IMG/VR virus record: IMGVR_UViG_3300012642_000011
Location: 288,001-352,000 of that record
Origin: a virus
Direction: 5' to 3' (one strand)
Length of the DNA: 64,000 bases
The notes under the pieces were generated by a model. That model searched no databases. It saw nothing but the letters and a program-made list of their open reading frames with translations, and was not told the DNA's origin. Below are positions 14,761-39,232 of the stretch, one piece after another (positions within the stretch are counted from its first letter, which is position 1; each line of letters opens with the position of its first letter). The translations under genes and the position numbers were made by a program.

Positions 14761-15006
14761 TCAGGAGACCACAGTGAAGGTAGCGACATGAGGGCCGAAC
14801 GTCTCGGTGACCTCCTTCATGCCCATCACCTCGATCTTGGTGCGCACATCTTCCATGCCGTTAGCAGTCAGCAGGGGCAGCGCCTCAGACATGGGGCCGG
14901 TGCTACGCTCGATCTCGTGGCCGTTGGAGTCACGAACCACAACCAGCAGGGTATCCTCCTTGATGGTGAGTCCGTCCTTGGTGGCCTTGATCTTGGTGTC
15001 CATCAT
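14761..15006 (-). CDS. hypothetical protein
   Basis: 81-aa ORF. The promoter containing motif B lies about 70 bp upstream. Confidence 0.4.
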   Translation of the reverse strand: MMDTKIKATKDGLTIKEDTLLVVVRDSNGHEIERSTGPMSEALPLLTANGMEDVRTKIEVMGMKEVTETFGPHVATFTVVS

Positions 15007-15065
15007 GGTCTCTCTCCTTGAGAGTCAGTAGGAATCGCTCTGTGTTGCTCTTCCTGTTGATGACT

Positions 15066-15100
15066 CAACTCTAACATGCAGGGACGCTCCATGTCAACAC
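15066..15100 (-). promoter_or_regulatory. leftward sigma70-type promoter whose -35/-10 spacer is the reverse complement of motif B
   Basis: The minus-strand reading is TTGACA-TGGAGCGTCCCTGCATG-TTAGAGT, about 60 bp upstream of the start at 15006. Leftward promoters near 15830, 17830, 21120, 21705, 22420, 23420, 30525, 32250, 33345 and 33775 share this architecture. Confidence 0.5.
15078..15098 (+). repeat. motif B instance (GGGACGCTCCATGTCAAC family)
   Basis: gggacgctccatgtcaac. There are about 25 intergenic, same-strand copies. Others lie near 5318, 8325, 17825, 18740, 19415, 21115, 21700, 22415, 23415, 27830, 28715, 30520, 31225, 31310, 31395, 32240, 33345, 33765, 34360, 34780 and 37005, with a degenerate copy at 15825. 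Confidence 0.6.
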
Positions 15101-15242
15101 GGAAGAATAATTTCTTAGTCCATAGGTACGATGAGCATGCTGTTATGTGATGGTACATAGATCATGGATGAGGGGACACAGTATTGATCGCATAGAAATA
15201 GCGAGAGGGAATGGTGATAATCCATCCCCTCTCGCTATTGAA

Positions 15243-15755
15243 TCAGTTCATGTGGTAGGTGGACTTGTAGCCGTCCTCGTTGTTCTTTCCACCCTCGATC
15301 AGATCCTTGACCTTGACCTGCTCCCAATGAACTTCACCATCAACCCAACCGAACAGGATGTGCTCAGGGTCTCGCTGATCAATGATCACGGAGAGCCCAT
15401 CGGAAGTGTGATAGCCCTCGATCAGAGCCATGTAACCACCGGCCTTCTCTGCCTGAAAAGCCGTGTATCGGGACCGGAGATCGTCCGTCTTTGGCACACC
15501 ACGGGTAACGTAGAGTCCATATCCCATATGATCATTGTCATCACCCGCGTAGTTCTTTGCCTCCATATCCAACGAACTGATGTGGTCGTAGGAGGTAGTG
15601 ACCTTCTTGAAGATACGGGAGAGAGCCTTCTCAGGTGCCTTGTGGTCCTTGAGGGCGAGGGACAGGTTCTGATCGATCATGGTAGACCACTGGACAGACA
15701 CCATGTTCAGAGTGCCCTGCAGATCGATATGTGCGAAAGTAGCGCGCATTCCCAT
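15243..15755 (-). CDS. hypothetical protein
   Basis: 170-aa ORF. Confidence 0.45.
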   Translation of the reverse strand: MGMRATFAHIDLQGTLNMVSVQWSTMIDQNLSLALKDHKAPEKALSRIFKKVTTSYDHISSLDMEAKNYAGDDNDHMGYGLYVTRGVPKTDDLRSRYTAFQAEKAGGYMALIEGYHTSDGLSVIIDQRDPEHILFGWVDGEVHWEQVKVKDLIEGGKNNEDGYKSTYHMN

Positions 15756-15958
15756 GTGATTGTCTCCTAATCAAGAGTGATGGTCTTAGGCTGTTCCTTC
15801 GACCTTGTGAGAACAATCTATCATGCAGGGAAGATCCATGTCAACACGTTAGCCAGAAACATCTATAAAGCGTTTCTGCTACTTTGAATCGTTCTCGTTA
15901 CATAGGGGACACAAAATATTCATAAGCAACTTACGGGTTCAGTAAGCGCATCAGAGGA

Positions 15959-16348
15959 TCAGGATTCTACCTCGAAATTGCTCACATAGGCATCAGGGTA
16001 GACGTTCTTGACGGCGTTGTTGGCCCACTGCACCCATTCATCAAGTCCGAGAACAAGAGGGAACGGTGCAGCGGGATCGTACTGGCGAGCAGTGTAGTCC
16101 ACTACGTGAGAGCAGTCGCTGTTGGCATAATGCACAGTGCCGTTGCTGAAATCGACGCGGACCATCGGGACTTCCGTGAACATGTAGAGTTCGCTTGACA
16201 CAGCATGGCAGTTGTTGTAGGCAACATCAGGATCAGAGCATGCATGAATCTGGATGAAGTCATCACTCACATGTGGACTGTGGTTGTACACTTCAACGTC
16301 AACGTACTCATTGAGCACATCAGTGATGCAGTCTGATCCCTTTGCCAT
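15959..16348 (-). CDS. hypothetical protein
   Basis: 129-aa ORF. Confidence 0.4.
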   Translation of the reverse strand: MAKGSDCITDVLNEYVDVEVYNHSPHVSDDFIQIHACSDPDVAYNNCHAVSSELYMFTEVPMVRVDFSNGTVHYANSDCSHVVDYTARQYDPAAPFPLVLGLDEWVQWANNAVKNVYPDAYVSNFEVES

Positions 16349-16477
16349 GTGCTCATCCTACAGGAAGATGATCTTGATGTCCAGAGTGAGAATCACGGGC
16401 AAGGGGACACGAAGCATGAGGGAACAGGAAGGGAGAGCACAACGCCCTGTGACCTCCCTTGCTCCCCTGCTAGTAGG

Positions 16478-16750
16478 TCACTGATCGTCTTCGGCAACCT
16501 CGATGTTGAAATCTCCACGGATAGCCATGTTCACCAGATCAGTGAAGAGGAAAACGGTGTTGCTCCCAGCAGCACGAACTTCCTCCACAGTCGCGTACTC
16601 ATGCGTCACCAGAGCAACATCTGCCTCGGTGAACTTGTCATCACCGTACTCGGGGTTCTTGGCCTCAACCTGTGCGTTGACGTGCTCCACGATGGGCGCA
16701 AGGTCAACAACGTCACCAGCGACCAGTTCAGCAATCGTCTTGATGGTCAT
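16478..16750 (-). CDS. hypothetical protein (90 aa)
   Basis: Internal start MTIKTIAEL with RBS GAGGAGA. The longer track ORF looks like an upstream extension. Confidence 0.4.
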   Translation of the reverse strand: MTIKTIAELVAGDVVDLAPIVEHVNAQVEAKNPEYGDDKFTEADVALVTHEYATVEEVRAAGSNTVFLFTDLVNMAIRGDFNIEVAEDDQ

Positions 16751-16925
16751 AATGGTCTCCTCAGTATGAGTTCTTGAGTTGAACGGGTTTGTATCTTTCA
16801 GGTTCCAGACTACACTATGGGTGTCCTTTGTGCAAGTAGGTCTGTCTGCGTATAGTGTAGGGGACACAAGATAACTAAACCGCAGAGAGGGAGAGTACAG
16901 CATCTTGTACTCTCCCTCTCTCGTA

Positions 16926-17762
16926 TCAACTTGCTTCCAGCCATCCGATCTCTCGAAGAGCCTCGTTATCATTGTTCTGACGGAGGAGGAAGTTGCTGGC
17001 GATGGGCTTGACCTGAATGTTGTTCACCTGCTCCCACTCCATCAGGGCGTTCCATGCAGTGCAGACCTCACGGCGATTGGTCTTCTTGCTGGCGAAGTTC
17101 ATGTTCATGAAGGGGGACGTGACAGGGGCGAGAGTGTTGAACAGAGTGCGTCCAGATGAATGCCGAGCAATCGCCCACAACTCAAATCCATCAGGCTCAA
17201 AGCCGTTGTTGGAGACCTCCTTGATGAAATTACGCTGACCAATCACGCTGAACGTCTTCTTTGCCATCGACTTCCGCCCCTCCCACGTCGGGTAATCAGG
17301 AATGGGCGTAGGCATGAGCGTGAGGGAATCGGACTCAATGTAAGCATGGATCAGACGACGGCATGCTGCATTGGGCGGATAGCCCTTGACCTTGTTTCGA
17401 GGGGCGCGATCAAAGATCAGTGCGTTCTCCCACGCATCAAGCGTGTTGACCTGCAGAATGAACAGGTTGTCATCCTCACCGTTCACAATGCGGACATCAT
17501 CAGGAAGCATAGCAGAGTACTTCTCCACAGCCTTGACGACAGTCTTACGAGCGTTGGACTTGCGCTTGTTCTCCTTCGCGCGATCAATGATTCGCTGCGT
17601 GCTCTTCTTGCTCTGGTACACGTCCTTGTGCTTCTTGCTGGTGATCTGACGCTTCGTAGACGGCATCAGATCTTTCACAAAAGCAAAACAGCAGTAAGCG
17701 AGAGGAATGATAAGAGGGATGAGTACCGCTACGATCACGATGGTGAGGAATGACGGTTCCAT
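16926..17762 (-). CDS. N-terminally membrane-anchored hypothetical protein
   Basis: An N-terminal TM helix is followed by a basic region across a 278-aa ORF. A promoter containing motif B lies upstream. Confidence 0.45.
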   Translation of the reverse strand: MEPSFLTIVIVAVLIPLIIPLAYCCFAFVKDLMPSTKRQITSKKHKDVYQSKKSTQRIIDRAKENKRKSNARKTVVKAVEKYSAMLPDDVRIVNGEDDNLFILQVNTLDAWENALIFDRAPRNKVKGYPPNAACRRLIHAYIESDSLTLMPTPIPDYPTWEGRKSMAKKTFSVIGQRNFIKEVSNNGFEPDGFELWAIARHSSGRTLFNTLAPVTSPFMNMNFASKKTNRREVCTAWNALMEWEQVNNIQVKPIASNFLLRQNNDNEALREIGWLEAS

Positions 17763-17946
17763 GATGTTCTCCTAAGAGTTATTGCCTTGGTCTGTTCTAT
17801 AGACCTGATACCTCTACTCTACCACAAGGGACGCTCCAGTATCAAGCGATACCCCCTGTTGCTGATCTCTGATCTTCATGCTATAGTAGACGAGTAGCCT
17901 TCAGTTGGTGGCTATGAACATCACACGAAAAAGGGAGTAGTGACCA

Positions 17947-18080
17947 TGGATCGCATCGATTTTCTCATCGCAGCAGGTTTGGATCAGATGGAGCGTGACC
18001 AGATCAAGCGAGATGCTGTGAACTTCATGAACGCCACGGGGATTGGCTTGGGAGCGTCGGAAGACTCAGACGACAAGTGA
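17947..18080 (+). CDS. small hypothetical protein (44 aa)
   Basis: ATG preceded by AAAGGGAG. Confidence 0.3.
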
Positions 18081-18197
18081 GCAGGGTGGGCAGGTGCTTT
18101 ATGCACCTGTTCATCACTTGAGGGGACACAAGTTACTATCCATAAAAAGTAGGGAGAGCATGATGATCATGCTCTCCCTACTTCGTTCTCAGGAAGG

Positions 18198-18635
18198 TCA
18201 CGGGAGCACGATTCCCACGCCCTTGAACCCCACCTGATCCTTGATCTCATCAATGGCACCAATGACATCGAGAGCAAACTGGACATACAGATCAGACTCA
18301 TGATTCATGTACGTACCACGCCCCAAGAGGGTGACGAAGACGTAATCGGAATCACCGATCACGTACTCGGTGCTGTGAGAACTACCAGTACCGTAAGTAT
18401 CCACAAGTGCATACAGAATGGCATCCACAGTCTTATGCACAATGGAAGGGAAGTGAGCGTCGAAGTCAATGGGATTGTAATCACCACCGATGTTCTCCAT
18501 GCGATCCTTGATGAAGGACTCATCGAAAACAGCCTTCACAGTGTCCTTGTGCTTGATCAGGATCGAGGTGAAGTCGATCTTCTCGGTCTCGTAGAACCCG
18601 ATGGCCTTGCTGGTGTCAATAGTGTATCCGTACAT
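18198..18635 (-). CDS. hypothetical protein
   Basis: 145-aa ORF. Confidence 0.45.
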   Translation of the reverse strand: MYGYTIDTSKAIGFYETEKIDFTSILIKHKDTVKAVFDESFIKDRMENIGGDYNPIDFDAHFPSIVHKTVDAILYALVDTYGTGSSHSTEYVIGDSDYVFVTLLGRGTYMNHESDLYVQFALDVIGAIDEIKDQVGFKGVGIVLP

Positions 18636-18779
18636 GTTTTCTCCTTGAGAAATGTGCCTGATGGATTTTTGCTTCTACGAACACACTACAGGAGACAAGT
18701 GATCATGTCAACCTGTCTCCTGTAGTGCGTTACAGATCAGGGACGCTCCACCAACGTTTACAGGTGTTTTAATTCTGTG

Positions 18780-19000
18780 GATAACCCTGTGGATAAAATT
18801 GTGGATACTCAAGTACCCCCGAAGTGTCCATAAGTAAACCCTGTGGATACGCTTGTACGCAAGCGTTTTATCGAGCAGTTATCCACAGGTAGTGATCAGC
18901 ATGTGAGCAATAGTTATCCACAGCCTGTTGAGAACTGAAGAACACCTCGCAAACTCCTTGCATATCGCTGTGGATAACATACTTGTGGCGAGGATCGGGG
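18780..19000. promoter_or_regulatory. DnaA-box cluster (oriC-like or DnaA-titrating element)
   Basis: In about 215 bp of non-coding DNA, TGTGGATAA occurs three times and TTATCCACA twice as perfect matches to the 9-mer consensus. Three to four copies with one mismatch (TGTGGATAC twice, TGTCCATAA) occur in both orientations. A 10-bp-stem hairpin with an AT-rich loop follows at about 19030-19075. Confidence 0.6.
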
Positions 19001-19079
19001 ACACAAAATGATGTCATGCAAAAGTCGAGGGCAAGCACTCATATAAAAATCAATGGTGCTTGCCCTCGAACTCTCTTGA

Positions 19080-19253
19080 TCAGCGCGTCTCGATCAGCAG
19101 TGGGACGCTCCACTCCTGCTTGACATGGACAGGGGCGGGATCAGATGCTTCCACGTCTTCCATTCGCCCCCGAAGGATGCGCTGCGAATCTGCGCTCAGG
19201 GCCATCTTGTTGGGGTCGATCTTGACCAGACGGACGTTCTTGATGTTCTCCAT
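19080..19253 (-). CDS. small hypothetical protein
   Basis: Internal ATG with RBS GAGGAGA. Confidence 0.35.
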   Translation of the reverse strand: MENIKNVRLVKIDPNKMALSADSQRILRGRMEDVEASDPAPVHVKQEWSVPLLIETR

Positions 19254-19509
19254 GATGGAATCACTTCTCCTCATTGTTCACTGTTAGCAACGTGTTCATG
19301 TTACAGACCTTGCGTATCGTCGTCAACTTGGTGTAGAGAAGATGACCGGCAAGCATGCTCAACACGGATTGTCTCACACCTATCATAGATGACGATCTAC
19401 CGTTTGCATCATGGGACGCTCCATGTGTGTGAATCGGATTGACAACGCAGTGACCATGCTCTACTGTTTCTCATGTCGGCAAAAATCCTCAATCGAAGAA
19501 GGAACCATC

Positions 19510-19974: not shown

Positions 19975-20135
19975 TAGCAGAGGGGGATGTTTGATTACGT
20001 CCCCCTCTGTCTTGCTGTTCTAAGGGGACACAGATTTAAATAACACTCTGCGAGCATGATCCAAGTTGACGTGTGTACTGATTGTGTGATACTCTTGATA
20101 CAGCACTACTGACAGACAGAGAAGGGAGAGGATGC

Positions 20136-20720
20136 ATGAAGCCGTTATTGTACATGGACATTGATGGCGTCCTCAACCCCTTGCGTTCTCGATCCAAAGG
20201 ACGCCCTGAAGGGTGGAACGCAGCGTATATGGACAATTCTGGCGATGAACCCATTGTCTTCCCATCAAAGAGGTTCTACAGGTACAAGAATCATGGGCAC
20301 ATCATCGTCTGGTACCCTGTGGACGCGCGTGAGTGGTTCGACGCTCTCAAGGATGTCTACGATGTCTGCTGGGCAAGCAAGTGGGGACGCTCCGCAAGCA
20401 CTGTCTACGCTGGACTTTTCGGTATGGAAGGCGAGATCCCGTTCCTCGACATTCCTAACATTCCAGAGGCGCAATGCCCCCTCTCGCGTTACACTGGCCG
20501 TCATGCCAAGGATTGCGACTGCCTGCACTCCAAGACGCTATTGCTGACCGATCACGCCGATGGTCGTCCGTTCGTGTGGGTGGATGATGAGGCGACCAAG
20601 AGGGACGTGACATGGTTGACCCAGAACGATCCACGTGGCCGTGCTTACATCGTGGACGGGTATCACGGATTGCGCCGTGGTGATGTCAACTCGTTGGTGG
20701 GCATGGCACAGGATCTCTAA
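20136..20720 (+). CDS. HAD-superfamily phosphatase (DxDGV motif)
   Basis: MDIDGVLN is motif I of HAD hydrolases. RBS GGGAGAGGA precedes the start, and a promoter TTGACG-N17-TACTCT lies upstream. Confidence 0.55.
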   Translation: MKPLLYMDIDGVLNPLRSRSKGRPEGWNAAYMDNSGDEPIVFPSKRFYRYKNHGHIIVWYPVDAREWFDALKDVYDVCWASKWGRSASTVYAGLFGMEGEIPFLDIPNIPEAQCPLSRYTGRHAKDCDCLHSKTLLLTDHADGRPFVWVDDEATKRDVTWLTQNDPRGRAYIVDGYHGLRRGDVNSLVGMAQDL

Positions 20721-20777: not shown

Positions 20778-21050
20778 TCAGACGATGGCCTGCTGGTTCA
20801 AGGTGTCCGTGTTGATCAGCCCGCTCTCCACGGACGCCTTGAACGCCTCTGAGAGCGGGAAGACCCCGTTCTGGGCCATCCTCAGGCCGGAGACGTAATC
20901 GCTGATCTCGTTGGAGTGACGGACGATCACGGTCGGGGAGGTGATGTTCTTCTCGCAGAAGTACATGTCGGACTGGACGCCGTTCACGGCCACGTTGCCG
21001 ACGAAGATGCAGTTGTGGCAGTCGTGCTGGAAGCGGGGGTGGATGCTCAT
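20778..21050 (-). CDS. hypothetical protein
   Basis: 90-aa ORF with a bidirectional terminator at about 20735-20770. Confidence 0.4.
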   Translation of the reverse strand: MSIHPRFQHDCHNCIFVGNVAVNGVQSDMYFCEKNITSPTVIVRHSNEISDYVSGLRMAQNGVFPLSEAFKASVESGLINTDTLNQQAIV

Positions 21051-21195
21051 GTTCTCTCCTTGAGAGTGGTGGTCTTGGGCGGTTCCCTTGACCTGATGCT
21101 CTTACTCTACCACGGGGGACGCTCTACGCGCAAGTGAAAGATTGTGGCCCGCTGATCTCTGAGTCAGCGGGCCACAATCTTTCGTGCTCTTGGGA

Positions 21196-21642
21196 TCAAT
21201 CTGAGTAATACCAAGAGATATCTTCTTCGATCTCGATACGGTAAGCGCCCTCAGAAATGATCAGATTAAGGCCGTGTTCCTTGAGAAAACTCTTCGGAAT
21301 GCCAATCACCTCTTCGAGCGCATCAAGCGCAATGTCAGTGAGGAGATCAGTGATGTGAATCACAACTGCCTTGTGAAGACGGTTACGATTGGTCACCTTG
21401 GTTACGCTGTCATCGTACTGGTAACCAACGCTATCTGAGACAGACTCCACGTAATCCTTGAACTTGTCTTTGTTGGATTTAAGAGCCATCTGAGTGAAGT
21501 GGTACTGGAAAGTTTTACCATTATCGATGCGATCCCAGATATCGTGAGGGTCATCGAACAGATCAGGGAACTGTTCATTCACCTTCTTCTCAAAGATGCC
21601 GTAGGCAGCATCGGACTCATTCTGGTTAATGATGATCTTCAT
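21196..21642 (-). CDS. hypothetical protein
   Basis: 148-aa ORF with a terminator hairpin at about 21140-21185. Confidence 0.45.
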   Translation of the reverse strand: MKIIINQNESDAAYGIFEKKVNEQFPDLFDDPHDIWDRIDNGKTFQYHFTQMALKSNKDKFKDYVESVSDSVGYQYDDSVTKVTNRNRLHKAVVIHITDLLTDIALDALEEVIGIPKSFLKEHGLNLIISEGAYRIEIEEDISWYYSD

Positions 21643-21863
21643 GATGTTTCTCCCTGAAAGTAAGTGATTCGCTTGAACCTTTACATGACCTTACTACAGT
21701 GGACGCTCCATTGTCAACTCGATTCTCCATATGGATGATGAATCCGTTGTCGTACCCCCTGTACCGTATGTCCCAGTTCTCATTCTTAAGCAAGGGACAC
21801 GGATTATCGTGCAAGCAGATGGGGGACTGACAGGCGCTACCCATCAATCCCCCGTCTTTTCCA

Positions 21864-22361
21864 TTAATCGCGGCAATTACAACCGCAGTAGTGGATGTCA
21901 CGCTCAGCAGTACGCGCCGCGTACTCGATGTCATCGATGTAACTCGGAGCATTCACAAAATCGTTTCCAGAGAACGCGCTTGCCGGAACATCATCACGAC
22001 CCATCGCCTCGAAGAAGGACTCAACAACCATCGTGTCAATCGTCTCATGCATGTGATGCATGTACGCCTTTTTCAGACGGATCGTGCGGCTACGCTTGGA
22101 CTCGCCCGCCTCCTCGATGAAGCCGATCATCTTGGCGCTGGACTCCATCATCTCCTTGAAAGCAGCCTTGTTGGTATCCATGGTGGACATGATGATGTTC
22201 AAGATGTTATTGCGCAAGTCGCAGTCGCAAAAGTACACCATGAAGGACACGCTATCCCTGATCTCATCGAGGTTCCACAGCGCGCCACGCAGGGACTCCA
22301 TCTTCTTCTCGAAGATGTCCATTGCCTTCTTGGTCTCATCGGTGGTAACGAGGATCTTCAT
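21864..22361 (-). CDS. hypothetical protein
   Basis: 165-aa ORF. Confidence 0.45.
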   Translation of the reverse strand: MKILVTTDETKKAMDIFEKKMESLRGALWNLDEIRDSVSFMVYFCDCDLRNNILNIIMSTMDTNKAAFKEMMESSAKMIGFIEEAGESKRSRTIRLKKAYMHHMHETIDTMVVESFFEAMGRDDVPASAFSGNDFVNAPSYIDDIEYAARTAERDIHYCGCNCRD

Positions 22362-22447
22362 GGTCTCTCCTTGGGAGTTATGCTCTCAATTGCTCTGATG
22401 CTCCGATTCTACCATGGGGGACGCTCCATGTGCAAACCATTCCTTCA

Positions 22448-23102: not shown

Positions 23103-23357
23103 TCACCAGCCCAGTTCCTCACGCGCGGCGGAGGAAAGGTACTCGTCACCGCCCATTCCCTCCTCAGCGATGTACACCGCGCCCTCAGCCAGCGCCATGT
23201 CACCAATGGCGTGCTGAATGGGGTAGGAAGGCTGCACAGCAAGGCGAACAGGGGCCTCATACGCCGCGTCCTCGCCGTGCTCTTCCTCGATCTGATCCTT
23301 CAGGGACTGCAGAGTTTCGATCATCTCACCAAGGGTCATTGCCATGTTCTTCTCCAT
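23103..23357 (-). CDS. hypothetical protein
   Basis: 84-aa ORF. Confidence 0.4.
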   Translation of the reverse strand: MEKNMAMTLGEMIETLQSLKDQIEEEHGEDAAYEAPVRLAVQPSYPIQHAIGDMALAEGAVYIAEEGMGGDEYLSSAAREELGW

Positions 23358-23437
23358 TCAAAGTGATGGGGTCAAGTTCTTCTCAACCCCTGTTGATGGT
23401 CCTACTCTACCACGGGGGACGCTCCATCTACAAGAGA

Positions 23438-24370: not shown

Positions 24371-25138
24371 ATGAGCATTTACGAGTGGGAGAGCGGGAAG
24401 ATCGTGCTTCCGACCAAGGACGTTGCGCCCCTGAAGAAGATTCTTCGGGATCAGGTGAACACGTTCCATTCGGATGTTCGCGCCAAGGCTGTGGAGATGC
24501 ACAAGTCTGCAAAGACCACTTCCACTAAGAAGTATGGCGAATTCTTCGGTTTCGACAAGCACTACTATGACGACTCCAAGAACACGATGGTAGAGAACGT
24601 CGCCCGTGACATTCTGAAGGGCATGTGGGAGAACGCGAACGCTGGGCGAGGGACGCTCCATGTTCCCACTGTGGCTGACGTTTCGCGTCATGCTCCCAAG
24701 ATGACGACCAAGGACAATCATTTCCGTGTTCTTGACAATCAGGGTTTTGATGCGGCTCTGATTCACTTCAATGGCCGCATTGTGGAGTGGGCTGTGGAGG
24801 AGAACAACCATGCTGTCGATCATGCGTACAGCGCTCCTCTTGCGCGGTCGCTCTTCAAGTACCTGCATCAGATCGAGTGGACGCGCGGCACTGGTGGTCA
24901 TGGTGTGGGCAACAACGAGATGAATACGGATAGCGATTACGTGGGCGGCGGGGCTAACTACGTTGCCTTCAGTTACGGCCCGCTTGGTGTCGAGGTGCTT
25001 GCACAGGGCGCGCAGATGAGCAAGAAGAAGTACCTCAGCACTCATCTGGACATTGACGAGAAGAAGCACGCTGACAACTCAGGCTACGAGCGCAGTCTGC
25101 CCCTTAACACTCGTCGTCCCTACAACTTCATCTGGTAA
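24371..25138 (+). CDS. hypothetical protein
   Basis: Internal ATG with RBS AAGGAGA. A promoter TTGACC-17-TAGAGT lies at about 24301-24329, and a terminator hairpin at about 25145-25185. Confidence 0.5.
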   Translation: MSIYEWESGKIVLPTKDVAPLKKILRDQVNTFHSDVRAKAVEMHKSAKTTSTKKYGEFFGFDKHYYDDSKNTMVENVARDILKGMWENANAGRGTLHVPTVADVSRHAPKMTTKDNHFRVLDNQGFDAALIHFNGRIVEWAVEENNHAVDHAYSAPLARSLFKYLHQIEWTRGTGGHGVGNNEMNTDSDYVGGGANYVAFSYGPLGVEVLAQGAQMSKKKYLSTHLDIDEKKHADNSGYERSLPLNTRRPYNFIW

Positions 25139-25211: not shown

Positions 25212-25688
25212 TCATATAGGTTTGAGAACACCTGTTACCATTGCCATGAGGGAGAAATCCGCATCCTCTTGGTCCTGCTTCATTAAATCTTGCACTGCAA
25301 GGTCGTATTTCTCAATGGCGGCTGAAGTGAGCATGTGATCAATGAAGACGCACTGAGCGTCAAATATCTCATCTCTGTCCGTGAAGAATGCTTTACTCTC
25401 CAAGGCATGCCTCATCAGGTTTTCATCAACCATGTCCAAGTGATTGTGATGTGCAAGGTCAGCCACAAGGTCTGGACGCTCTGTGAGCAGACGGTAGGTT
25501 GCTGGGGGTAGAGTGATCGCGTGAGCAGCTACGTCCGCCCCTAGTCTCTCCACTACGTGATTCAGGTCAGACGGGATTCTGAAAGCAAGTGTGGTCAAGT
25601 CGATGACGTACTTAGGGTCTTCCTGCATAACGAGATGAACTCGCCTGTGAAAATGCTGAGAGTGAGAAGAAGTATATGATTGACTCAC
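25212..25688 (-). CDS. hypothetical protein (probable GTG start)
   Basis: A GTG start is preceded by AAGGGAGG inside track ORF 25212..25712. Confidence 0.4.
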   Translation of the reverse strand: MSQSYTSSHSQHFHRRVHLVMQEDPKYVIDLTTLAFRIPSDLNHVVERLGADVAAHAITLPPATYRLLTERPDLVADLAHHNHLDMVDENLMRHALESKAFFTDRDEIFDAQCVFIDHMLTSAAIEKYDLAVQDLMKQDQEDADFSLMAMVTGVLKPI

Positions 25689-26710: not shown

Positions 26711-27325
26711 ATGAAGAAGACGATCATGCTCGTAGACATTGATGGCACGCTTGCCATCAACAATACGGCAGAGAGCAAGCCTCTCAACGGATTCAATAGC
26801 GAATGGGCAGAGATGACCATTTCCCGACTGGATCACCCTGAGATGTTCACAGGCGCAGTAGAGCAGTTGGCAAGCATCAATCGCGTCCTTGCCGACGATG
26901 CCAAGATCGAGGTGGCTGTGGACCTGACCATGCTCTCTGCCTTCTCGCAGATCGCTTCCCGCCCCCATGTGGAGTGTAAGTGGCTGACCATGTGGGAAGA
27001 CAAGGCTGTGGACTTGTTCGCTCCGTTCACGGGACTTGGTGAGGAATGGGACGTGCTGAAGAAGGGGGACGCTCCAAGAGATTGGAAACTGAGCGTTCTG
27101 GATCAGGTGGCTGGTAAGAACCCCGATACTCAGATCATCTTCCTTGACGATGACGTAGCCGTGCTCCCCTCTCATTTCGCCGCTTTGGAGGAGATCGTGG
27201 AGTCCCGTGAGAACGTGTTCGTGGTGGTTCCTACTCCTCACGTGGGCTTGACGGCTGTAGAGGTAGGATGGATTGGTTCTGTCGTGGACAATCCGAATAT
27301 GGTGAATGCACTGCTGTGTGAATGA
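26711..27325 (+). CDS. HAD-superfamily hydrolase (second copy)
   Basis: VDIDGTLA is motif I and FLDDD is motif IV-like. A -10 element TATTCT sits only about 9 nt before the ATG, which suggests a leaderless transcript. Confidence 0.5.
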   Translation: MKKTIMLVDIDGTLAINNTAESKPLNGFNSEWAEMTISRLDHPEMFTGAVEQLASINRVLADDAKIEVAVDLTMLSAFSQIASRPHVECKWLTMWEDKAVDLFAPFTGLGEEWDVLKKGDAPRDWKLSVLDQVAGKNPDTQIIFLDDDVAVLPSHFAALEEIVESRENVFVVVPTPHVGLTAVEVGWIGSVVDNPNMVNALLCE

Positions 27326-27445: not shown

Positions 27446-27757
27446 TCAGGATGCCTTCAGGGCCTTTGCCTCAGCATGAGCGACGTTGATGCCTGCCACG
27501 TAACCGTTGATGGCGGCGTTCAGGATGGTATCCACCTGCTCGTAGTTGCTTTCAGTACGAGGCGTGGGGCACTCCACGAAGAACTCACCACGCCATTCGA
27601 GGTAGACGTTGTAGCCAGAGCCGTTCTCCACGGACTCTGCCCAGCCTTCGACATCGGAAGCGAAGGCTCCTGAGTAGATGCCGAGGTTATCCGTGTTCTT
27701 GCCGTTGTTTCGGGCTTCCTCGTTCGCGTAGTAATCCGTGGCAATCGCGTAGCGCAT
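27446..27757 (-). CDS. hypothetical protein
   Basis: Internal start MRYAIATDYY with RBS GGGAGAG. Confidence 0.4.
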   Translation of the reverse strand: MRYAIATDYYANEEARNNGKNTDNLGIYSGAFASDVEGWAESVENGSGYNVYLEWRGEFFVECPTPRTESNYEQVDTILNAAINGYVAGINVAHAEAKALKAS

Positions 27758-27845
27758 TTTTCTCTCCCTTGAAAGATGTGGTGTTGCTTTCAGTAGTAAG
27801 CATACCTCATGCAAGGGTGCTTTGCAAGCAGAGGGGACGCTCCAT

Positions 27846-28280: not shown

Positions 28281-28637
28281 TCAGAGTTCGGTGGAAAGAG
28301 CGCGGGCTACTCCCTTGCTGATATCCTCCATGAGATCACCATGGCGAGTGTACAGATCGTCCCAGATACGATCGTTCAGCGCACCGAAAGAACTCTGAAG
28401 AGATGTGAGATGATTGATCTGGGCACCACTCATATCGTTCAAGATATAATGAGCAGCCCTACAATCCTCATCATCAGGGTAGACCTGATCGATGGCATCG
28501 TGGACATCATCAGCACTCAGAGGCGTGAAACCCTCTTCAGAGCCGATCTTATATGCAGAAATCAGGGCCGATTCGGCATCGGGGTTCTCCCTGATCAGCG
28601 CGTCAAGGCCAGGGTGTCCAGTGGGCTTACTCGTCAT
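28281..28637 (-). CDS. hypothetical protein
   Basis: Internal start MTSKPTG with RBS AGGAGAG. The upstream part of the track ORF is probably not coding. Confidence 0.4.
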   Translation of the reverse strand: MTSKPTGHPGLDALIRENPDAESALISAYKIGSEEGFTPLSADDVHDAIDQVYPDDEDCRAAHYILNDMSGAQINHLTSLQSSFGALNDRIWDDLYTRHGDLMEDISKGVARALSTEL

Positions 28638-28817
28638 TTTCTCTCCTGTGGGAATCGGATCTTTACTAACAGGATCTACTATACACCAGATCACTGCACT
28701 TAACAACCTATAGGGACGCTCCGCATGAAGACGAATCACTATCGTCATGATGGTTGACAATATGGAGCCTATGTGAGATATTGAAAGTGTCCTGACAACG
28801 AAAGCAAAGGGAAGACC

Positions 28818-29024
28818 ATGAAGATCAACGATGCCTCTGTCGAGGAGTTCCGTAACAAGTTCTGGCATGCCAACCACATCAATCCTCGCTCGTGGGAGGT
28901 GCTGACTGAGGATGACCATGATCTGTGGCGTGATCGCTACCAGAAGTTCATCAACGGGGAGTCCTTCACGATGCCCAACGGATTCAAGACGAAGGGGATC
29001 ACCCTCACCAGCGTGAGCAACTGA
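28818..29024 (+). CDS. small hypothetical protein
   Basis: 68-aa ORF with a terminator hairpin at about 29040-29080. Confidence 0.4.
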   Translation: MKINDASVEEFRNKFWHANHINPRSWEVLTEDDHDLWRDRYQKFINGESFTMPNGFKTKGITLTSVSN

Positions 29025-29170
29025 CCACACCTGAACTCACAAGCGGGATACGATGGAGTGTTTCATCGTATCCCGCTTTCTTTCCTACTCATAGGGGACA
29101 CAATATTCAGAACTAAAGCAAAAAGGAGAGGGAGACCATGATGCTATGGTCTCCCTCTCGCGTTTAGCGA

Positions 29171-29872
29171 TCACACAGCGGTCAGAAGGGACTGCACAAC
29201 GTCAGCGTTCGTGATCACGGGGGCAGGGGTGACAGGGAAGGGCTTCACCTTAGTCTTGGTGTGTGCCGACTGGTAGGCGAGGATCACCTGATTACGCAGC
29301 CGCCCAGTGTCAGCCACGGTGTACCCGTTGTCCTTGGCCCATGCGCGAATCTTGGCGGCGTTACGGTTCTTCCCCTTCTTGCTGGGCGACTTGATGAAGC
29401 GATCATCCTTGAAACCGTAAGCCTGAGCGTAGGCGATCAAGAGATCATTGGACAGGCGACCACGATCAGCGGTGGTGTAACCGTTCTCCTTGCCCCATTC
29501 ACGAATCAGAACGGAGTCAGGGACATGCTTGGTCTTGGTGGTCTTGACCTTCTCTTCCTTGGTGTTCAGGACATGGATGCGACCACCAGTGATGCTCTCG
29601 TCAACGGGGCAACCGTGAGCGACGTAGGACTCGACCACGGAGCGGTGCAGACGGCCACGGGTGCCGGTCTGGATACCCTGAGACTTGGCCCATGCCCGCA
29701 CCTGAACGGCGTTGTACGCGACGCCCTCCTTGTCTGCATACGTGGTGATCTGGGAGATCAGGTTGTGGAACTTGGCATCCACCTTCTCATCGGAAATGGA
29801 GTAGGTGGTGTTGTTGATGGTGATGTTCACGATGATCCTTTGTTCGTGTGCTCTGTTGTGTACTGATCCCAT
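29171..29872 (-). CDS. protein with three tandem Lsr2-type C-terminal DNA-binding domains
   Basis: Three repeats carry the RGR motif: VRAWAKSQGIQTGTRGRLHRSVVESYVA, IREWGKENGYTTADRGRLSNDLLIAYAQA and IRAWAKDNGYTVADTGRLRNQVILAYQSA. An alternative GTG start lies at about 29829. Confidence 0.6.
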   Translation of the reverse strand: MGSVHNRAHEQRIIVNITINNTTYSISDEKVDAKFHNLISQITTYADKEGVAYNAVQVRAWAKSQGIQTGTRGRLHRSVVESYVAHGCPVDESITGGRIHVLNTKEEKVKTTKTKHVPDSVLIREWGKENGYTTADRGRLSNDLLIAYAQAYGFKDDRFIKSPSKKGKNRNAAKIRAWAKDNGYTVADTGRLRNQVILAYQSAHTKTKVKPFPVTPAPVITNADVVQSLLTAV

Positions 29873-29995
29873 CCTATAACACCGGAGAAGTCAATGCAAC
29901 ATGTGATTCCATTGGTGCGTCATCTGTCGTCATATTTAATGGGGACACAGAATGAGAGCATGCGAGCACTTGGTGAGAGTGCTTGCTCATGGTGG

Positions 29996-30157
29996 TTACG
30001 TGTTGGCAACTACCATCATGCGCCCCACAAGGAATGCCCCGATGATAGCGGAGACAATAAGCATCATGGGGTTGAAGGCATTCAGATAGAAAAATGCGGC
30101 CACACCGATGGCGTTCAAGGTGACGAAGAGAATGTAAAGGAGGGAAATAAATCGCAT
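29996..30157 (-). CDS. small membrane protein
   Basis: Hydrophobic ORF. The start is uncertain because the TTG at 30226 lies inside a terminator hairpin. Confidence 0.3.
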   Translation of the reverse strand: MRFISLLYILFVTLNAIGVAAFFYLNAFNPMMLIVSAIIGAFLVGRMMVVANT

Positions 30158-30248
30158 GATGATCTTTCTTACAAGCAATGGAAGTGTACTTCCACAGTAT
30201 AGCACAAAACTCCCCTCCGTGTACAAACGGAGGGGAGTTTTTAGCGGG

Positions 30249-30476
30249 TCAGTGATCTGCGATCTGCATTACCACGGCCCAATGGTCGCCAGCATCCTGT
30301 GCTGACCACGACTGGACGTACTGGTTGAGCTTTCGCTTGGGGAGGTTGGGGATCTGGTTGTTGGTGAACATGTCAGTGGCAATCTTTGCTGCCTCATGCT
30401 TGTTCGCCACGTCCATGGGCGAACCGTTCTTTCGAATGGTCTTGCCCACGTTGTGCTTGATGATGATGTTCGTCAT
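30249..30476 (-). CDS. hypothetical protein
   Basis: 75-aa ORF with RBS AAGGAGGA. Confidence 0.4.
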   Translation of the reverse strand: MTNIIIKHNVGKTIRKNGSPMDVANKHEAAKIATDMFTNNQIPNLPKRKLNQYVQSWSAQDAGDHWAVVMQIADH

Positions 30477-30622
30477 GATGTCCTCCTTTGACTTCTATAT
30501 TATACCATGTGGACGCTCCATACACAAGTGCCGACTCCACATGTATAATCTTGCAATGGTGTACATATAACGAGAAAGAGTGATCCCCCTACACCATTCA
30601 GGCGAGGGGGATCACTCAGGAC

Positions 30623-30970
30623 TCACTTGTTGTGAGCGGCGCGGTAACGCTTCACGGTGTCACGGGACAGACGGCCACGCTTGCCCTTCTCGATCAGGCC
30701 CTTCTCCTCAGCCCACGCGCGGATCTCGGCGGCGGAGTCGGAGACCACAACGGTATCCTTATCGGTGAACTGGTACTTCTTGCGGATCTTGTTCTTCAGG
30801 ATCTTCTCGGCGTTCTCAGCCACGAACTTGGGGTCCTGGACCTTGGTGGCGGACTTGGCGTTCAGCGGGACGATGTAGATACCCTTGTTCGGGATCAGCA
30901 CCTCCACGGGCTTGGCACCCATCTGCTTGGTGATCGCGTCCTGCAGGAACTTCTTCTGGGTCTTGGTCAT
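30623..30970 (-). CDS. Lsr2-like DNA-binding protein (single C-terminal domain)
   Basis: The C-terminus reads IRAWAEEKGLIEKGKRGRLSRDTVKRYRAAH. Internal start MTKTQKK with RBS GAAAGGAAG. A terminator hairpin lies at about 30583-30618. Confidence 0.55.
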   Translation of the reverse strand: MTKTQKKFLQDAITKQMGAKPVEVLIPNKGIYIVPLNAKSATKVQDPKFVAENAEKILKNKIRKKYQFTDKDTVVVSDSAAEIRAWAEEKGLIEKGKRGRLSRDTVKRYRAAHNK

Positions 30971-31683
30971 GATGCTTCCTTTCAAAGTGATCATTGTGAT
31001 CAGGATGTGTGTTCTTCTGTCTTGCTGGTATCCATGTTGCCACATTATTTCTTCCGTGTCAACTATGGATCTGCATTTTTCTCAAGGTTCCTTCTGCTTC
31101 TCTGTCGGCTTCCGTTGCCTTGATGAGTACATCATGGCACACCTTTAATCCCCGTGTCAACACTTTTGCCAAAATTTTCTCAAAAATCCTCTGACATGGG
31201 TGTTTACAAGAGAATCAGGGGGCTGAACAAAGGGACGCTCCACGAACTCACACCTGCTGCCTGTTGTAATAATTCTTATATAAGCCTTATATAAGCAAAA
31301 AGAAAGCATACAGGGACGCTCCACATACATAGCCTACAGGTCTGCAATCCTTCCTCTGCGACAAGAGAAGAGCGTTCAGAACACCTCTGCATGGGGACGC
31401 TCCACACATGCGGGATGAGGAGGTCACATCAGTGTGCTTGCTGGACACGCTGTACGCCGTTCTGAGGGCATGAAGGAGTGGCAAGCCATCAATGTTCGTA
31501 CCAGACCTAGAAACGCCCCACAGGGGCACACAGCCTCTCGTGGAAGGGCGTACAGCCGCCTAAGGTGACTTGTGAATCACTCCACGGTCATGGTTTCCCT
31601 GTAGGGACACAGAATGACGAAACATAGACAAAGCACCCTGTGTTCTCCCCGTCAAGAGAGCACAGGGTGCTTCAATGTGTCTA

Positions 31684-32187
31684 TCAGAAATCAGCCTGAT
31701 TCAGAACAGCCTTGACGTTGGCCCGATCCTTCTCAAAAGTGAGAGTACGATCAGCGTTATCGATCAGGGACTGGATCACGTCCTGCTTGGTTTCGTACCC
31801 GTCCTCGATCTCATCCTCGTCCACGTCGTCAAAGAACGTCCACGCATAACCGTTCTTGGTGCTCAGGATAGCATAGCGGCCCATGCCGTCGAAATCGTGC
31901 TCCCACAGAAGAGTGCCCTCAATCTGCTCCCACTTGTGCTTGCGCAGAGTATCCATGACAGGCGTGTAGAGCGCGGTGAAGGCATCCCCGTCAATGACCT
32001 CATCACCGATCTTCTGGGCCAGGTCATTCAGAGCATCCTCGTAGGAGACATGCACATCGTCGCTGAAGTGCTCCTGATCGTCCTCGAACACATCTCGATA
32101 CCCCGTCTTGTACTCCCCGTTGGAGATCTTGGCGACGTAGTAGGTCAGGGCCTTGTTCCCCGTGGAGAACTCGTTGATGATCTTCAT
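31684..32187 (-). CDS. hypothetical acidic protein
   Basis: 167-aa ORF with a terminator hairpin at about 31638-31678. Confidence 0.45.
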   Translation of the reverse strand: MKIINEFSTGNKALTYYVAKISNGEYKTGYRDVFEDDQEHFSDDVHVSYEDALNDLAQKIGDEVIDGDAFTALYTPVMDTLRKHKWEQIEGTLLWEHDFDGMGRYAILSTKNGYAWTFFDDVDEDEIEDGYETKQDVIQSLIDNADRTLTFEKDRANVKAVLNQADF

Positions 32188-32293
32188 GATCTTCCTTTTC
32201 TGTGAAGGCGGTGTTTAACTCTTGCTCTCATCATAAGCACAGGGACGCTCCAATGTCAACCACGGATCATCACGTCTTCTCTGCTCCCTGTTG

Positions 32294-32605
32294 TCAACCA
32301 CGGATCACAGGTGCAGGCGGGTGACCACTACCGCCGCCCTTACAATAGGACTCATGCCAAATGGGCAATGAGCAGTCATCTGCATGCAATCCGAACGTCT
32401 CTCCCCATGGTCTCATTCTATACGAAATGCCGAAACACAGATGGCACTGTGAAAGATCCTCATTGGGGCCTTCTGGTCCACGGTGTAACCCACGGGGACA
32501 CGGAATCTCACCGCGCCTGATCTTTTCCTGCAACTCCTGATACTCCTGCAACGCTCCGTTAGCGATGCGCTCACGTGCTGCTTTCCTGAATGCATTCTCG
32601 CTCAT
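32294..32605 (-). CDS. hypothetical protein
   Basis: 103-aa ORF. Confidence 0.4.
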   Translation of the reverse strand: MSENAFRKAARERIANGALQEYQELQEKIRRGEIPCPRGLHRGPEGPNEDLSQCHLCFGISYRMRPWGETFGLHADDCSLPIWHESYCKGGGSGHPPAPVIRG

Positions 32606-32750
32606 GGCATTCTCCTTCGATAGTAGTGCTTTATTTTACCAAGATAGATGCTATGTTGACCATTTGTTACAGCAGGGGGCAAGGGGACACAGAGTGATCT
32701 ACTAAGGATAGGCGGTAACACCCAATGTGTTACCGCCTATCTGTTGTGTT

Positions 32751-33287
32751 TCAGAGGGAGTCGTCAGCCACAGCCGAGAGGACGTAATTCTTGGACTCGG
32801 GATCAAGAAGCGTGCTCATCACGCCGAGGGTCTTCTTGGTCTTCTCGTACACCTCGCCCACGGTCACGTTGGTGTCCAGACCATTCACGTCCACGGCCAC
32901 TGCGAACGGGTTATCACTGCGCCAAACCTCCTCTTCGGTCGTGTGGCGATACACCTCCATGCCGGACAGTTCGGACAGGACAGCAACAGCCTTCTAGCCA
33001 ATCTCATCCTTGACAGTGATCTGGTTCTCATCACCGTCAAGGATCTCGATGACAGCATCCTTCACGCCGTCTGTCTCCAGACGCTCCACGTGACCCCCGT
33101 AGTCGAGGCACTCAACCCAGATCAGGGTAACCGACACGGCTCCCTCGTACTCGGAGTGAGAGAGAGCCAACTGCATGGGCGAAGTGATCCCCTGAAGGAA
33201 GAAAATGGGGAGGTTGTTGTCCTGTGTGCTCATCCACTCGGGGAGTTCAAGCATCGGGGTGTTCAGATCAAACAGATTGGTCATCAT
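32751..33287 (-). pseudogene. single reading frame split by one in-frame TAG (ORFs 32994..33287 and 32751..32960)
   Basis: The minus-strand translation ...KDEIG-TAG-KAVAVLSELSGMEVYRHTTEEE... runs straight through the stop. There is no RBS before the downstream ATG. Confidence 0.4.
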
Positions 33288-33479
33288 GTCCTTCTTTCAA
33301 AGTAATCGGTCTTGCTCTGTCATGGATGAATCTACCACAGGGGACGCTCCATGCGCAACCTGATACTCACATTATTTTTTTGCAGATAGTTCTCAACAAG
33401 ACAGAGGGGACACAGATAACACTACGGGGTGAGCATGGCATCTACCCGAACACCATGCTCACCCCGTGAAATCAGCAGT

Positions 33480-33710
33480 TCACTTGGCAAAATCCTCTGT
33501 CGCGTCAAGCGAAATGTCATCCGTGACAGGAACCTCTCCATCGATCTCCTCCCACGGGCAAGGACGTGGACGACGCACGATCCGCCACGCGCCCTCACGT
33601 GCGCCATCCTCTTCGAACTCACGCATGATTGCACTGACGGCATTGAGACCCATTCCCTCATACAAAATCTCGCCCGTTCGCGTTCGCTTGATCGCGTACT
33701 CATACGACAT
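33480..33710 (-). CDS. hypothetical protein
   Basis: 76-aa ORF with RBS AAGGAGAA. Confidence 0.45.
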   Translation of the reverse strand: MSYEYAIKRTRTGEILYEGMGLNAVSAIMREFEEDGAREGAWRIVRRPRPCPWEEIDGEVPVTDDISLDATEDFAK

Positions 33711-33827
33711 GATGATTCTCCTTCAAACACTGATTTCATTGTCTCTTGTCAGGATACACAGAAGGACGCTCCATTGTCAAGAATACATCAGGTCACGTTT
33801 TCCAGACATGGGGACACAGTGTTGCCA

Positions 33828-39231: not shown

Positions 39232-39232
39232 C

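Follow-up and report, generated by a model that had tools for sequence, protein, structure and literature searches.

Why should a sequence of twelve nucleotides recur some forty times in one part of a viral genome, always on the same strand, and repeatedly come to lie between the -35 and -10 elements of promoters? The question arises from a 64,000-nucleotide stretch of IMG/VR record IMGVR_UViG_3300012642_000011 (positions 288,001 to 352,000), which we call the window. Here we report that this sequence, motif B, and a sister sequence, motif A, are confined to a GC-rich accessory-gene domain of what is probably a giant phage of Actinobacteria, and we suggest, with a probability of about 0.45 judged from the DNA sequence, that both may be the sites of a regulator that reads an asymmetric sequence and gates promoters. 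A first-pass annotation, made from the letters of the window, had taken motif B to be the -35/-10 spacer of a family of near-identical leftward promoters; this interpretation is partly supported by the analysis below and turns out to be too narrow.

The domain is delimited by its GC profile, strand counts and gene calls:

1-39529, both strands: GC-rich accessory-gene domain, ~52% GC, with every A and B copy inside it

The rest of the window (39530-64000) has ~41% GC, a drop of 11 points at the border, and in other contigs the domain extends at least 9.8 kb further leftward and at least 8.7 kb further rightward. It contains ~65 small genes on both strands, ~70% of them leftward and almost all without known relatives, which were called from matching metagenome contigs and checked by their ribosome-binding sites and by GC content by codon position. 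A sigmaA-like promoter for each gene, on either strand, is nearly universal, and many genes have a strong hairpin 3' of the stop codon.

A short motif in a single orientation

Motif B is a sharply bounded, asymmetric 12-mer, ATGGAGCGTCCC (5'-3', minus strand), without dyad symmetry. Its 8-mer core GGACGCTC is present 40 times in the plus-strand letters and 0 times as the reverse complement, so that motif B always lies on the minus strand. A scan for the decamer GGAGCGTCCC that tolerates up to one mismatch finds 38 sites there and none on the plus strand; shuffled sequence yields 2.4. The logo reaches 2 bits across the core, where 8-10 positions are invariant, and falls to ~0 bits outside it. 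When neighbouring contig DNA is added, the union holds 51 copies in 51.7 kb, and the orientation is the same throughout 18.5 kb of flanking DNA from other contigs, including a block of rightward genes; the one reversed copy in the flanks is a degenerate intragenic match. Motifs A and B, which stand at a density of one site per ~480 bp, together amount to ~115 copies over at least 61 kb, co-oriented whatever the direction of the genes. Both end where the GC-rich (52%) domain ends, and the motif B core is absent from the 24.5-kb low-GC part.

Motif B within promoter spacers

Leftward promoters built around motif B had been proposed at eleven places, and a TTGnnn-B-TAnnnT arrangement is present at all of them. 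These sites, which we term class I, comprise 10 intact copies and one degenerate copy (at 15828) of B in leftward TTGnnn-N17/18-TAnnnT promoters, in a constant register that reads, on the minus strand, TTGnnn, 1-2 nt, B, 5-7 nt and TAnnnT at all 11 sites. The expected spacer of 17-19 nt agrees with what is found, namely 18 nt in ten promoters and 17 nt at 30510. The consensus -35 does not hold throughout: TTGACA occurs in only 5/11, the others having TTGATA, TTGCGC (twice), TTGCAC, TTGTAG and TTGTGT, and with both the -35 and the -10 hexamers varying the promoters are not near-identical. TG stands at the extended -10 position in 8/11.

15068-15097, minus strand: class I promoter, TTGACA-18-TAGAGT, B at 15081-15090; gene 14761-15006
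15815-15844, minus strand: class I-like promoter, TTGACA-18-TAGATT, degenerate B GGATCTTCCC at 15828-15837; gene 15243-15680
17816-17845, minus strand: class I promoter, TTGATA-18-TAGAGT, B at 17828-17837; gene 16926-17762
21104-21133, minus strand: class I promoter, TTGCGC-18-TAGAGT, B AGAGCGTCCC at 21116-21125; gene 20778-21050; one end of an indel
21688-21717, minus strand: class I promoter, TTGACA-18-TAAGGT, B GGAGCGTCCA at 21700-21709; gene 21196-21642; other end of the indel
22406-22435, minus strand: class I promoter, TTGCAC-18-TAGAAT, B at 22418-22427; gene 21864-22361
23404-23433, minus strand: class I promoter, TTGTAG-18-TAGAGT, B at 23416-23425; gene 23103-23345
30499-30527, minus strand: class I promoter, TTGTGT-17-TATAAT, B GGAGCGTCCA at 30510-30519; gene 30249-30476
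32230-32259, minus strand: class I promoter, TTGACA-18-TATGAT, B at 32242-32251; gene 31684-32187
33329-33358, minus strand: class I promoter, TTGCGC-18-TAGATT, B at 33341-33350; gene 32751-33287
33751-33780, minus strand: class I promoter, TTGACA-18-TATCCT, B GGAGCGTCCT at 33763-33772; gene 33480-33710

The distance from B to the start codon had been put at 55-90 bp, which is roughly right: it is 53-75 nt in nine promoters, 34 nt at 30510, and 73 or 148 nt at 15828 according to the start chosen. From the end of the -10 to the ATG there are 22-61 nt (134 nt at 15844 with the short start), and most of the downstream genes have AAGGAG-type ribosome-binding sites. By their hexamers, their spacer and a following gene with a ribosome-binding site, the class I sites would qualify as sigma70/sigmaA promoters.

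Chance does not account for this register, since 10 intact copies were observed where 0.04-0.08 would be expected (Poisson P ~2e-18), and these 10 make up about a quarter of the 38 minus-strand TTGnnn-N17/18-TAnnnT sites. Placement in the spacer is seen only in leftward promoters (11/44, against 0/21 for rightward ones; Fisher P = 0.012). One of the 15 class I promoters in the union with the flanks would drive an array of 19 tRNA genes, which has tandem promoters, one of them with B in its spacer. Five class I promoters are 63-80% identical over 46 nt, reaching past the -10 (family D1). Variant strains L007 and L009 lack window positions 21128-21691, exactly one gene with its promoter and terminator, in a single event whose junction falls within a hybrid, B-containing class I promoter.

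The suggestion that the spacer is conserved far beyond the needs of sigma, and that a factor reads it, stands: the core of B is invariant, the hexamers on either side of it vary, and the information falls to ~0 bits just outside. This combination argues for a trans-acting reader as opposed to shared descent or sigma recognition.

Motif B outside spacers

The view that motif B simply is the spacer is not supported. It is an autonomous 12-mer that lies in a spacer in 11/40 copies in the window (~27%) and in 15/51 in the union with the flanks; 29/40 copies lie outside spacers, 18 of them within genes and others upstream of -35 elements. Leftward -35 elements are preceded by B at 6 nt in three cases, at 20 nt in two and at 28 nt in one:

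7456-7501, minus strand: B (7492-7501) 6 nt upstream of the -35, TTGCAA-18-TATACT; gene 6574-7416
27799-27843, minus strand: B (27834-27843) 6 nt upstream of the -35, TTGCAA-17-TATGCT; gene 27446-27757
28678-28722, minus strand: B (28713-28722) 6 nt upstream of the -35, TTGTTA-17-TATAGT; within doubtful open reading frame 28281-29030
5270-5329, minus strand: B (5320-5329) 20 nt upstream of the -35, TTGACA-18-TACGAT; RNA ligase gene 4225-5229
8273-8331, minus strand: B (8322-8331) 20 nt upstream of the -35, TTGACA-17-TAGCAT; gene 7633-8226
18683-18749, minus strand: B (18740-18749) 28 nt upstream of the -35, TTGACA-17-TAGTGT; between a DnaA-box cluster and gene 18198-18635

The DnaA-box cluster next to the last of these (18776-18977) comprises seven boxes in both orientations, five perfect TTATCCACA and two GTATCCACA, spanning 200 nt of a 444-nt intergenic region; the remainder of the 64 kb holds no perfect box. 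A replication origin is one possibility for the cluster and a DnaA sponge another.

The first-pass annotation had also noticed copies upstream of rightward promoters and had concluded that B is not simply part of sigma recognition. Both points hold, with such copies at 19413, 34362, 34780 and 37004:

19413-19422, minus strand: B in a divergent gap, 19 nt upstream of rightward TTGACA-17-TACTGT (19439-19467)
34362-34371, minus strand: B GGAGCGTCCT in a divergent gap, upstream of rightward TTGCAC-17-TACTGT (34385-34413)
34780-34789, minus strand: B GGAGCGTCCT upstream of rightward TTGCAC-17-TAGGCT (34796-34824), its GACGC ending 9 nt before the -35
37004-37013, minus strand: B, 78 nt upstream of rightward gene 37083-38276

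Among intergenic copies, B is found in 0/7 convergent, 3/7 divergent and 17/48 co-directional gaps, that is, only in gaps that bear a promoter. A group of three copies stands apart:

31232-31241, 31313-31322 and 31394-31403, minus strand: three B copies at an exact spacing of 81 nt, in the gene-free stretch 31046-31683

The same exact 81-nt spacing between B copies is seen at 15472/15553 (to 15562) of contig L016, giving three instances in all, with unrelated spacer sequences, and suggests cooperative or phased binding.

The intragenic copies (18/40, or 45%) lie antisense in rightward genes in 10 cases and sense in leftward genes in 8, and use all three frames. They include:

488-497, minus strand: weak B AGAGCGTCCT, antisense in rightward gene 208-924
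3445-3454, minus strand: B variant in leftward gene 3328-3648
7963-7972, minus strand: B variant in leftward gene 7633-8226
10299-10308, minus strand: B variant in leftward gene 10188-10589
10430-10439, minus strand: full B in leftward gene 10188-10589
11813-11822, minus strand: B variant, antisense in rightward gene 11426-11953
14133-14142, minus strand: B variant, antisense in rightward gene 13762-14595
19102-19111, minus strand: full B in leftward gene 19080-19253
20384-20393, minus strand: B, antisense in rightward gene 20136-20720
24650-24659, minus strand: full B, antisense in rightward gene 24371-25138
25473-25482, minus strand: weak B AGAGCGTCCA in leftward gene 25212-25688
27066-27075, minus strand: B, antisense in rightward gene 26726-27325
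33979-33988, minus strand: B variant in leftward gene 33828-34271
36369-36378, minus strand: B variant, antisense in rightward gene 36237-37001
36607-36616, minus strand: B variant, antisense in rightward gene 36237-37001
37297-37306, minus strand: B, antisense in rightward gene 37083-38276
37439-37448, minus strand: B, antisense in rightward gene 37083-38276

The sister motif A

Motif A, AGGGGACACAGAAT (5'-3', plus strand), shares a GGGAC core with B, and on the minus strand both are written in the frame AT-NNN-G-N-GTCCC. Its heptamer GGGACAC has a strand count of 43:0 in favour of the plus strand, in the GC-rich domain only, and G.GTCCC (74 on the minus strand vs 3 on the plus strand) falls into two discrete classes.

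94-38286, plus strand: motif A, first G of each copy at 95, 982, 1966, 2294, 3306, 4124, 5532, 5918, 6502, 7564, 8775, 9875, 10719, 11241, 12021, 12610, 13092, 14681, 15173, 15906, 16404, 16861, 18123, 18998, 20025, 21794, 23025, 24261, 25199, 25746, 26575, 27375, 28188, 29095, 29942, 31604, 32495, 32684, 33407, 33811, 36162, 37944, 38278

All but three of the copies (40/43) are intergenic, about one per gap between genes and just past the terminators, the median distance past the stop codon being 64 nt for leftward and 58.5 nt for rightward genes. At six rightward promoters GGGACAC begins 39-41 nt before the -35, and at about eight leftward ones it begins 26-29 nt before it, two registers that differ by about one helical turn, and the DNA between A and the -35 is non-homologous. 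Fixed distances kept without homology, here and in the 81-nt B-B spacing, point to a bound protein. A single co-regulated set of leftward genes, as had been proposed for motif B, leaves both the absolute co-orientation and the presence of A at 40 intergenic positions unaccounted for.

A proposed regulator reading an asymmetric site

We propose that motif B may be the recognition site of a DNA-binding protein that reads an asymmetric sequence, probably as a monomer, and that motif A would be a second type of site, bound by the same protein or by a paralogue of it. In class I promoters, B would fill about -28 to -19 between TTGnnn and an extended -10 (TGnTAnnnT). Since this places B under the polymerase footprint, its occupancy should gate initiation, and a protein bound in the spacer would control the host polymerase at that step, repression being the most likely effect. 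Sites that lie upstream of the -35 might recruit or tune the polymerase, and intragenic and boundary copies might act as orientation-dependent barriers.

One candidate for the reader is the host's WhiA, acting alone or with a partner of the WhiB type; another is a phage protein that carries a comparable domain. Actinobacterial WhiA binds an asymmetric GACAC, its consensus site, as a monomer and footprints two sites of the variant GACGC at treZ (PMC3781837); it contacts -22 to -18 of its own promoter, where it inhibits transcription (PMC3240954); and its sites function on either strand at variable spacing, the protein having a helix-turn-helix domain like that of sigma region 4 and activating together with WhiB (PMC10243135). 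In the domain studied here, GACAC is present in all 43 copies of A and GACGC in all 40 copies of B, a resemblance at the level of sequence. The pentamer of class I promoters lies at about -25 to -21, compared with -22 to -18 for WhiA, and the sites of both systems lie in promoter regions at variable spacing (B in spacers and 6, 20 or 28 nt upstream of the -35). For motif A the distance to the -35 is 22 nt in leftward promoters and 33 nt in rightward ones, yet the motif is also found in promoterless convergent gaps. The specific identification of the reader as WhiA, whether the host's or a phage protein of similar fold, seems to us doubtful.

As a system, the closest analogue would be the operator/stoperator network of L5 and other Cluster A mycobacteriophages (L5 gp71, the TipsytheTRex repressor). 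As a monomer, the L5 repressor occupies more than 20 asymmetric 13-mers, some of them at the early promoter and the rest away from it, and it blocks both initiation and elongation, in one site orientation only (PMC9283540). The setting is that of an actinobacteriophage in both cases, with an asymmetric site of ~12-13 bp in tens of copies (40 copies of B in 39.5 kb), some in or near the -35 of early promoters and many elsewhere, in a non-random orientation. The differences are considerable. L5 sites follow the direction of transcription in each genome arm, whereas A and B keep their orientation on both gene strands; the density here is about ten-fold higher, with two related types of site; stoperators lie in short intergenic spaces, which A would fit (40/43 intergenic) and B does not (18/40 intragenic); the sequences of A and B are unrelated to GGTGGMTGTCAAG; no gp71-like gene (helix-turn-helix plus stoperator domain) was seen among ~110 genes of the window and flanks; and the genome is ~440 kb as against the 50 kb of a temperate phage. 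The A/B system would thus not belong to the L5 family, though it may work in a similar way. It extends the known operator/stoperator theme of phages, with the addition of an unexplained polarity across the ~115 sites.

Several observations weigh against a promoter-gating regulator, and against WhiA in particular. The absolute co-orientation is not explained by it: the sites neither follow gene direction, as L5 stoperators do, nor are they free, as WhiA sites are, which have no fixed genomic orientation. Motif A occurs in 6/7 convergent gaps, and these hold no promoter. Both motifs are 12-14 nt long, longer than the pentamer, with conserved 3' tails; WhiA sites have nothing that matches the invariant GG in front of the pentamer; and A GACACAGA and B GACGCTCC fit GACACGCC (M. 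tuberculosis) or GAYACRCY (Mollicutes) at 6/8 positions. No match to WhiA, WhiB, sigma or repressor families was found among the ~110 genes of the window and flanks, and PHROG and Pfam scans of ~45 domain proteins gave no DNA-binding regulator beyond the Lsr2-domain proteins. Lsr2 domains bind AT-rich DNA, so these proteins are unlikely readers. In variants that are 1-3% divergent, 4/234 and 3/165 motif positions had changed, all of them peripheral, against a background of 2.5%, a difference that is not significant. Distant relatives carrying the motifs were found neither in IMG/VR, where GGGGACGCTCCATG gave 82 single chance matches and no multi-copy contig, nor in JGI metagenomes, where the class I pattern GAGCGTCCCNNNTGGTAGAGT gave 10 unrelated single matches, nor in the contexts of three RNA-ligase homologues (L111, L110 and L108; 69%, 64% and 61% identity; 34-43% GC), which have neither motif. 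When the strings of the motifs were searched for in the literature, the only matches were unrelated primers of eukaryotes.

Alternative explanations

A fixed orientation that is neither mixed nor tied to gene direction implies a polar process across the whole domain, such as replication, DNA entry or packaging, or long leftward transcription, or else recombination among direct repeats. The motifs might then be polar signals for a machine that crosses the domain one way, and no sites of a transcription factor at all: primase starts on the lagging-strand template, fork-permissive barriers, Chi-like signals for AdnAB/RecBCD, packaging or ejection signals, or nicks as in T5 and phiKMV. The 100% co-orientation of ~115 copies over at least 61 kb whatever the direction of the genes, the copies within genes in all frames and the presence of A at unit boundaries, convergent gaps included, are what such signals would produce. 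Chi, KOPS, Ter and the T5/phiKMV nick sites share this strict strand specificity over tens of kb, independent of gene direction; the minus-strand GTC, preceded by GTG or GCG, resembles the 5'-GTGTC of T7-type primases, and a minus-strand template fits a fork moving with the 70% leftward gene bias. Polar signals give no reason, however, for the register of B in 10-15 spacers or for two preferred distances from A to the -35, nor for the absence of intergenic B from promoterless convergent gaps. Signals of the primase, Chi and KOPS kinds known so far have lengths of 3-8 nt and no tie to promoters; Chi, KOPS, Ter and nick sites have no promoter registers, are much sparser and are not confined to one compositional domain, whereas the motifs here span one such domain, not the genome, with none in the 24.5-kb low-GC part. 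Chi and KOPS flip their orientation at origin and terminus. No flip is seen at the DnaA-box cluster (18776-18977) or anywhere in the 61 kb examined, and a polarity based on replication is weakened by the same orientation on either side of these seven boxes, the sole origin-like feature seen. On balance we consider polar signals of this kind unlikely, though worth keeping in view.

The sign of the control could also be reversed, with B as a positive element at which a phage activator, a sigma-appropriating factor or an alternative sigma docks to turn on one temporal class of leftward promoters. Class I promoters with a poor -35 (6/11; TTGCGC, TTGTAG, TTGTGT and others) rely on an extended -10, a frequent trait of activator-dependent promoters; B at 6 or 20 nt upstream of the -35, or before rightward promoters, occupies typical activator positions; the genes end in terminators, so that a termination-suppressing factor loaded at the promoter would be useful; and the window encodes an ADP-ribosyltransferase (41306-42085), an enzyme type with which T4 modifies the polymerase. 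The lambda Q-binding element, the T4 MotA box and MerR-type operators all act within or beside the spacer on host polymerase, as specific sites between or overlapping the -35 and -10 of a set of phage promoters. Those sites are confined to promoters and few in number, with neither a boundary sister motif nor a genome-wide polarity; the MotA box replaces the -35, and MerR operators are palindromic and lie in 19-20-nt spacers. Positions -28 to -19 are under the polymerase and a spacer of 18 nt is optimal as it stands; most of the proteins known to bind in spacers are repressors, and activators of the MerR type use long spacers and palindromic sites; intragenic copies and absolute orientation are accounted for no better; and no sigma-like or MotA-like gene was seen in the window and flank DNA. 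Positive control, which we judge to be quite improbable, differs from the favoured model in sign only. Finally, there might be no dedicated reader, B and A being the slowest-decaying parts of promoter/terminator cassettes spread by duplication and recombination. Promoter-early stem-loop (PeSL) cassettes, from hyperplastic regions of T4-type phages, are homologous modules of ~50-70 nt oriented with their genes, in contrast to the absolute orientation seen here; they too accompany series of small genes that lack known relatives and have a strong host-type promoter and a stem-loop apiece, and they serve as recombination points for the gain or loss of single genes, of which there is one example here. 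The junction of that indel, in L007 and L009, makes B promoters real recombination points, the five promoters of subfamily D1 retain 63-80% identity over 46 nt, and repeats that are all direct are what unequal crossing-over would preserve. Such descent does not fit short cores with 8-10 invariant positions amid unrelated flanks (~0 bits), a 46-nt homology limited to 5 members, or fixed spacings kept with non-homologous spacers; copies in unrelated genes and three frames cannot be remnants, and the genes between copies are almost all mutually unrelated. We therefore hold cassette descent to be very improbable.

A broader form of the regulator model would take in the polarity. A and B may be two "letters" of a polar 13-mer code, read by a WhiA-like or sigma4-like monomer, that organises more than 100 promoter-gene-terminator units. 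B in the spacer would be an on/off switch and A a boundary and upstream site, and each complex would form a one-way barrier, as in Tus-Ter and L5 stoperators, permissive to the machine that crosses the domain one way. This is a speculative extension that we think is probably wrong in its full form.

Other candidates were set aside on specific grounds. A peptide motif is ruled out by the use of all three frames, and a hairpin or N4-type promoter by a stem that would reach 3 bp only. There is no second conserved block, as a bipartite alternative-sigma promoter would have, and integron attC-like sites would need core-site sequences, which are missing, the hairpins belonging to the genes. The junction sequences of the adjacent IS200/IS605 element are unrelated to the motifs, which excludes them as its target or TAM. 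An A acting as a -10-like element (CAGAAT) was rejected as well, the equivalent A at -11 being missing in B.

Implications

The regulation of small-gene domains in giant phages is essentially unknown, and here its wiring is readable from the sequence, in self-contained units that each have a host-type promoter, a terminator and two related, co-oriented motifs at defined positions. Should a single factor read these motifs, it would be a master switch for more than 60 genes and the tRNA array, and would open the early or accessory programme of this uncultured megaphage to experiment. Were it the host's WhiA, possibly with WhiB, this would be the first phage regulon or sponge built on essential actinobacterial cell-division regulators, and the ~115-site array would also soak up one of them. 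An absolute polarity that is independent of gene direction matches no described phage regulatory system, and its mechanism is still to be found. The compact, insulated units may also be useful as parts for engineering actinobacteria.

Source element and gene content

The window comes from an uncultured element. Metagenome contigs match it at 97-100% identity, among them a 332-kb ENA contig, and the proteins of the window recur on a contig of 437,576 bp, so that a size of ~440 kb is probable. No capsid or terminase genes were seen, so that its status as a phage is an inference, and we regard it as a phage or phage-like element that would infect an actinobacterium. The host assignment follows from the presence of Lsr2 DNA-binding domains and from the homologues of the domain proteins among cultured phages, all of which come from actinobacteriophages; the TAnnnT/TAGAGT type of -10 element was counted as fitting this setting. 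Neither half of the window had a megablast match among 50,697 GenBank phages, the best match in a scan of GTDB genomes with the RecG-like helicase was a bacterial one of 33% identity, and a scan of IMG/VR with the RNA ligase gave no relative. With no relative in GenBank phages or GTDB, the element is uncultured and unbinned. The 462-kb uncultured phage LR756500 was considered as a relative and rejected (25% GC, unrelated). RNA-ligase homologues of related elements sit in DNA of 34-43% GC.

Proteins of the domain with a family match include an RNA ligase, a HAD "Swiss army knife" RNA-repair domain, a metallophosphoesterase, a GmrSD-type nuclease, an HNH protein and two Lsr2-domain proteins; an Rfam scan found tRNAs only. 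Genes of RNA-repair type, namely an RNA ligase, a YspA/SLOG protein, a metallophosphoesterase and a HAD_SAK_2 domain protein, lie near the tRNA array at 4225-5229, 12631-13062, 13762-14595 and 20136-20720, and their presence suggests a countermeasure to tRNA-cleaving defences of the host. The Lsr2-type proteins are encoded on the minus strand at 29171-29872 (233 aa, with three tandem DNA-binding domains and without the oligomerisation domain) and 30623-31045 (140 aa, with one), and may interfere with silencing by host Lsr2.

The tRNA array (minus strand, 38410-39305) has 3 genes in the window and 19 in uninterrupted contigs (L016, 11328-17473). The window departs from the other contigs at 39529/39530, where the array continues in them and where the low-GC segment of the window is found ~220 kb off and inverted; the junction is either a rearrangement or an assembly join. 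An IS200/IS605 element (39452-41198) is present, with TnpB at 39452-40753 (minus strand) and a Y1 transposase at 40797-41198 (plus strand).

The low-GC part encodes an intein-bearing NrdE/NrdF pair, a RecG-like helicase, a ClpB-like ATPase, a clamp-like protein and the ADP-ribosyltransferase. The last, of exoenzyme type (41306-42085), adjoins an NrdE gene with intein and LAGLIDADG insertions, in a stretch (42279-49888) in which a 577-aa HNH/DUF723 endonuclease is placed between nrdE and nrdF.

Contig L010 differs from the window by one base over 20 kb. Gene 32751-33287 (minus strand), which has an in-frame stop in the window copy, is called there as 178 aa. Two pairs of paralogous small rightward genes in tandem, at 34454-35199 and 35355-36069 (54% and 39% identical), are the sole clear recent duplications in the domain.

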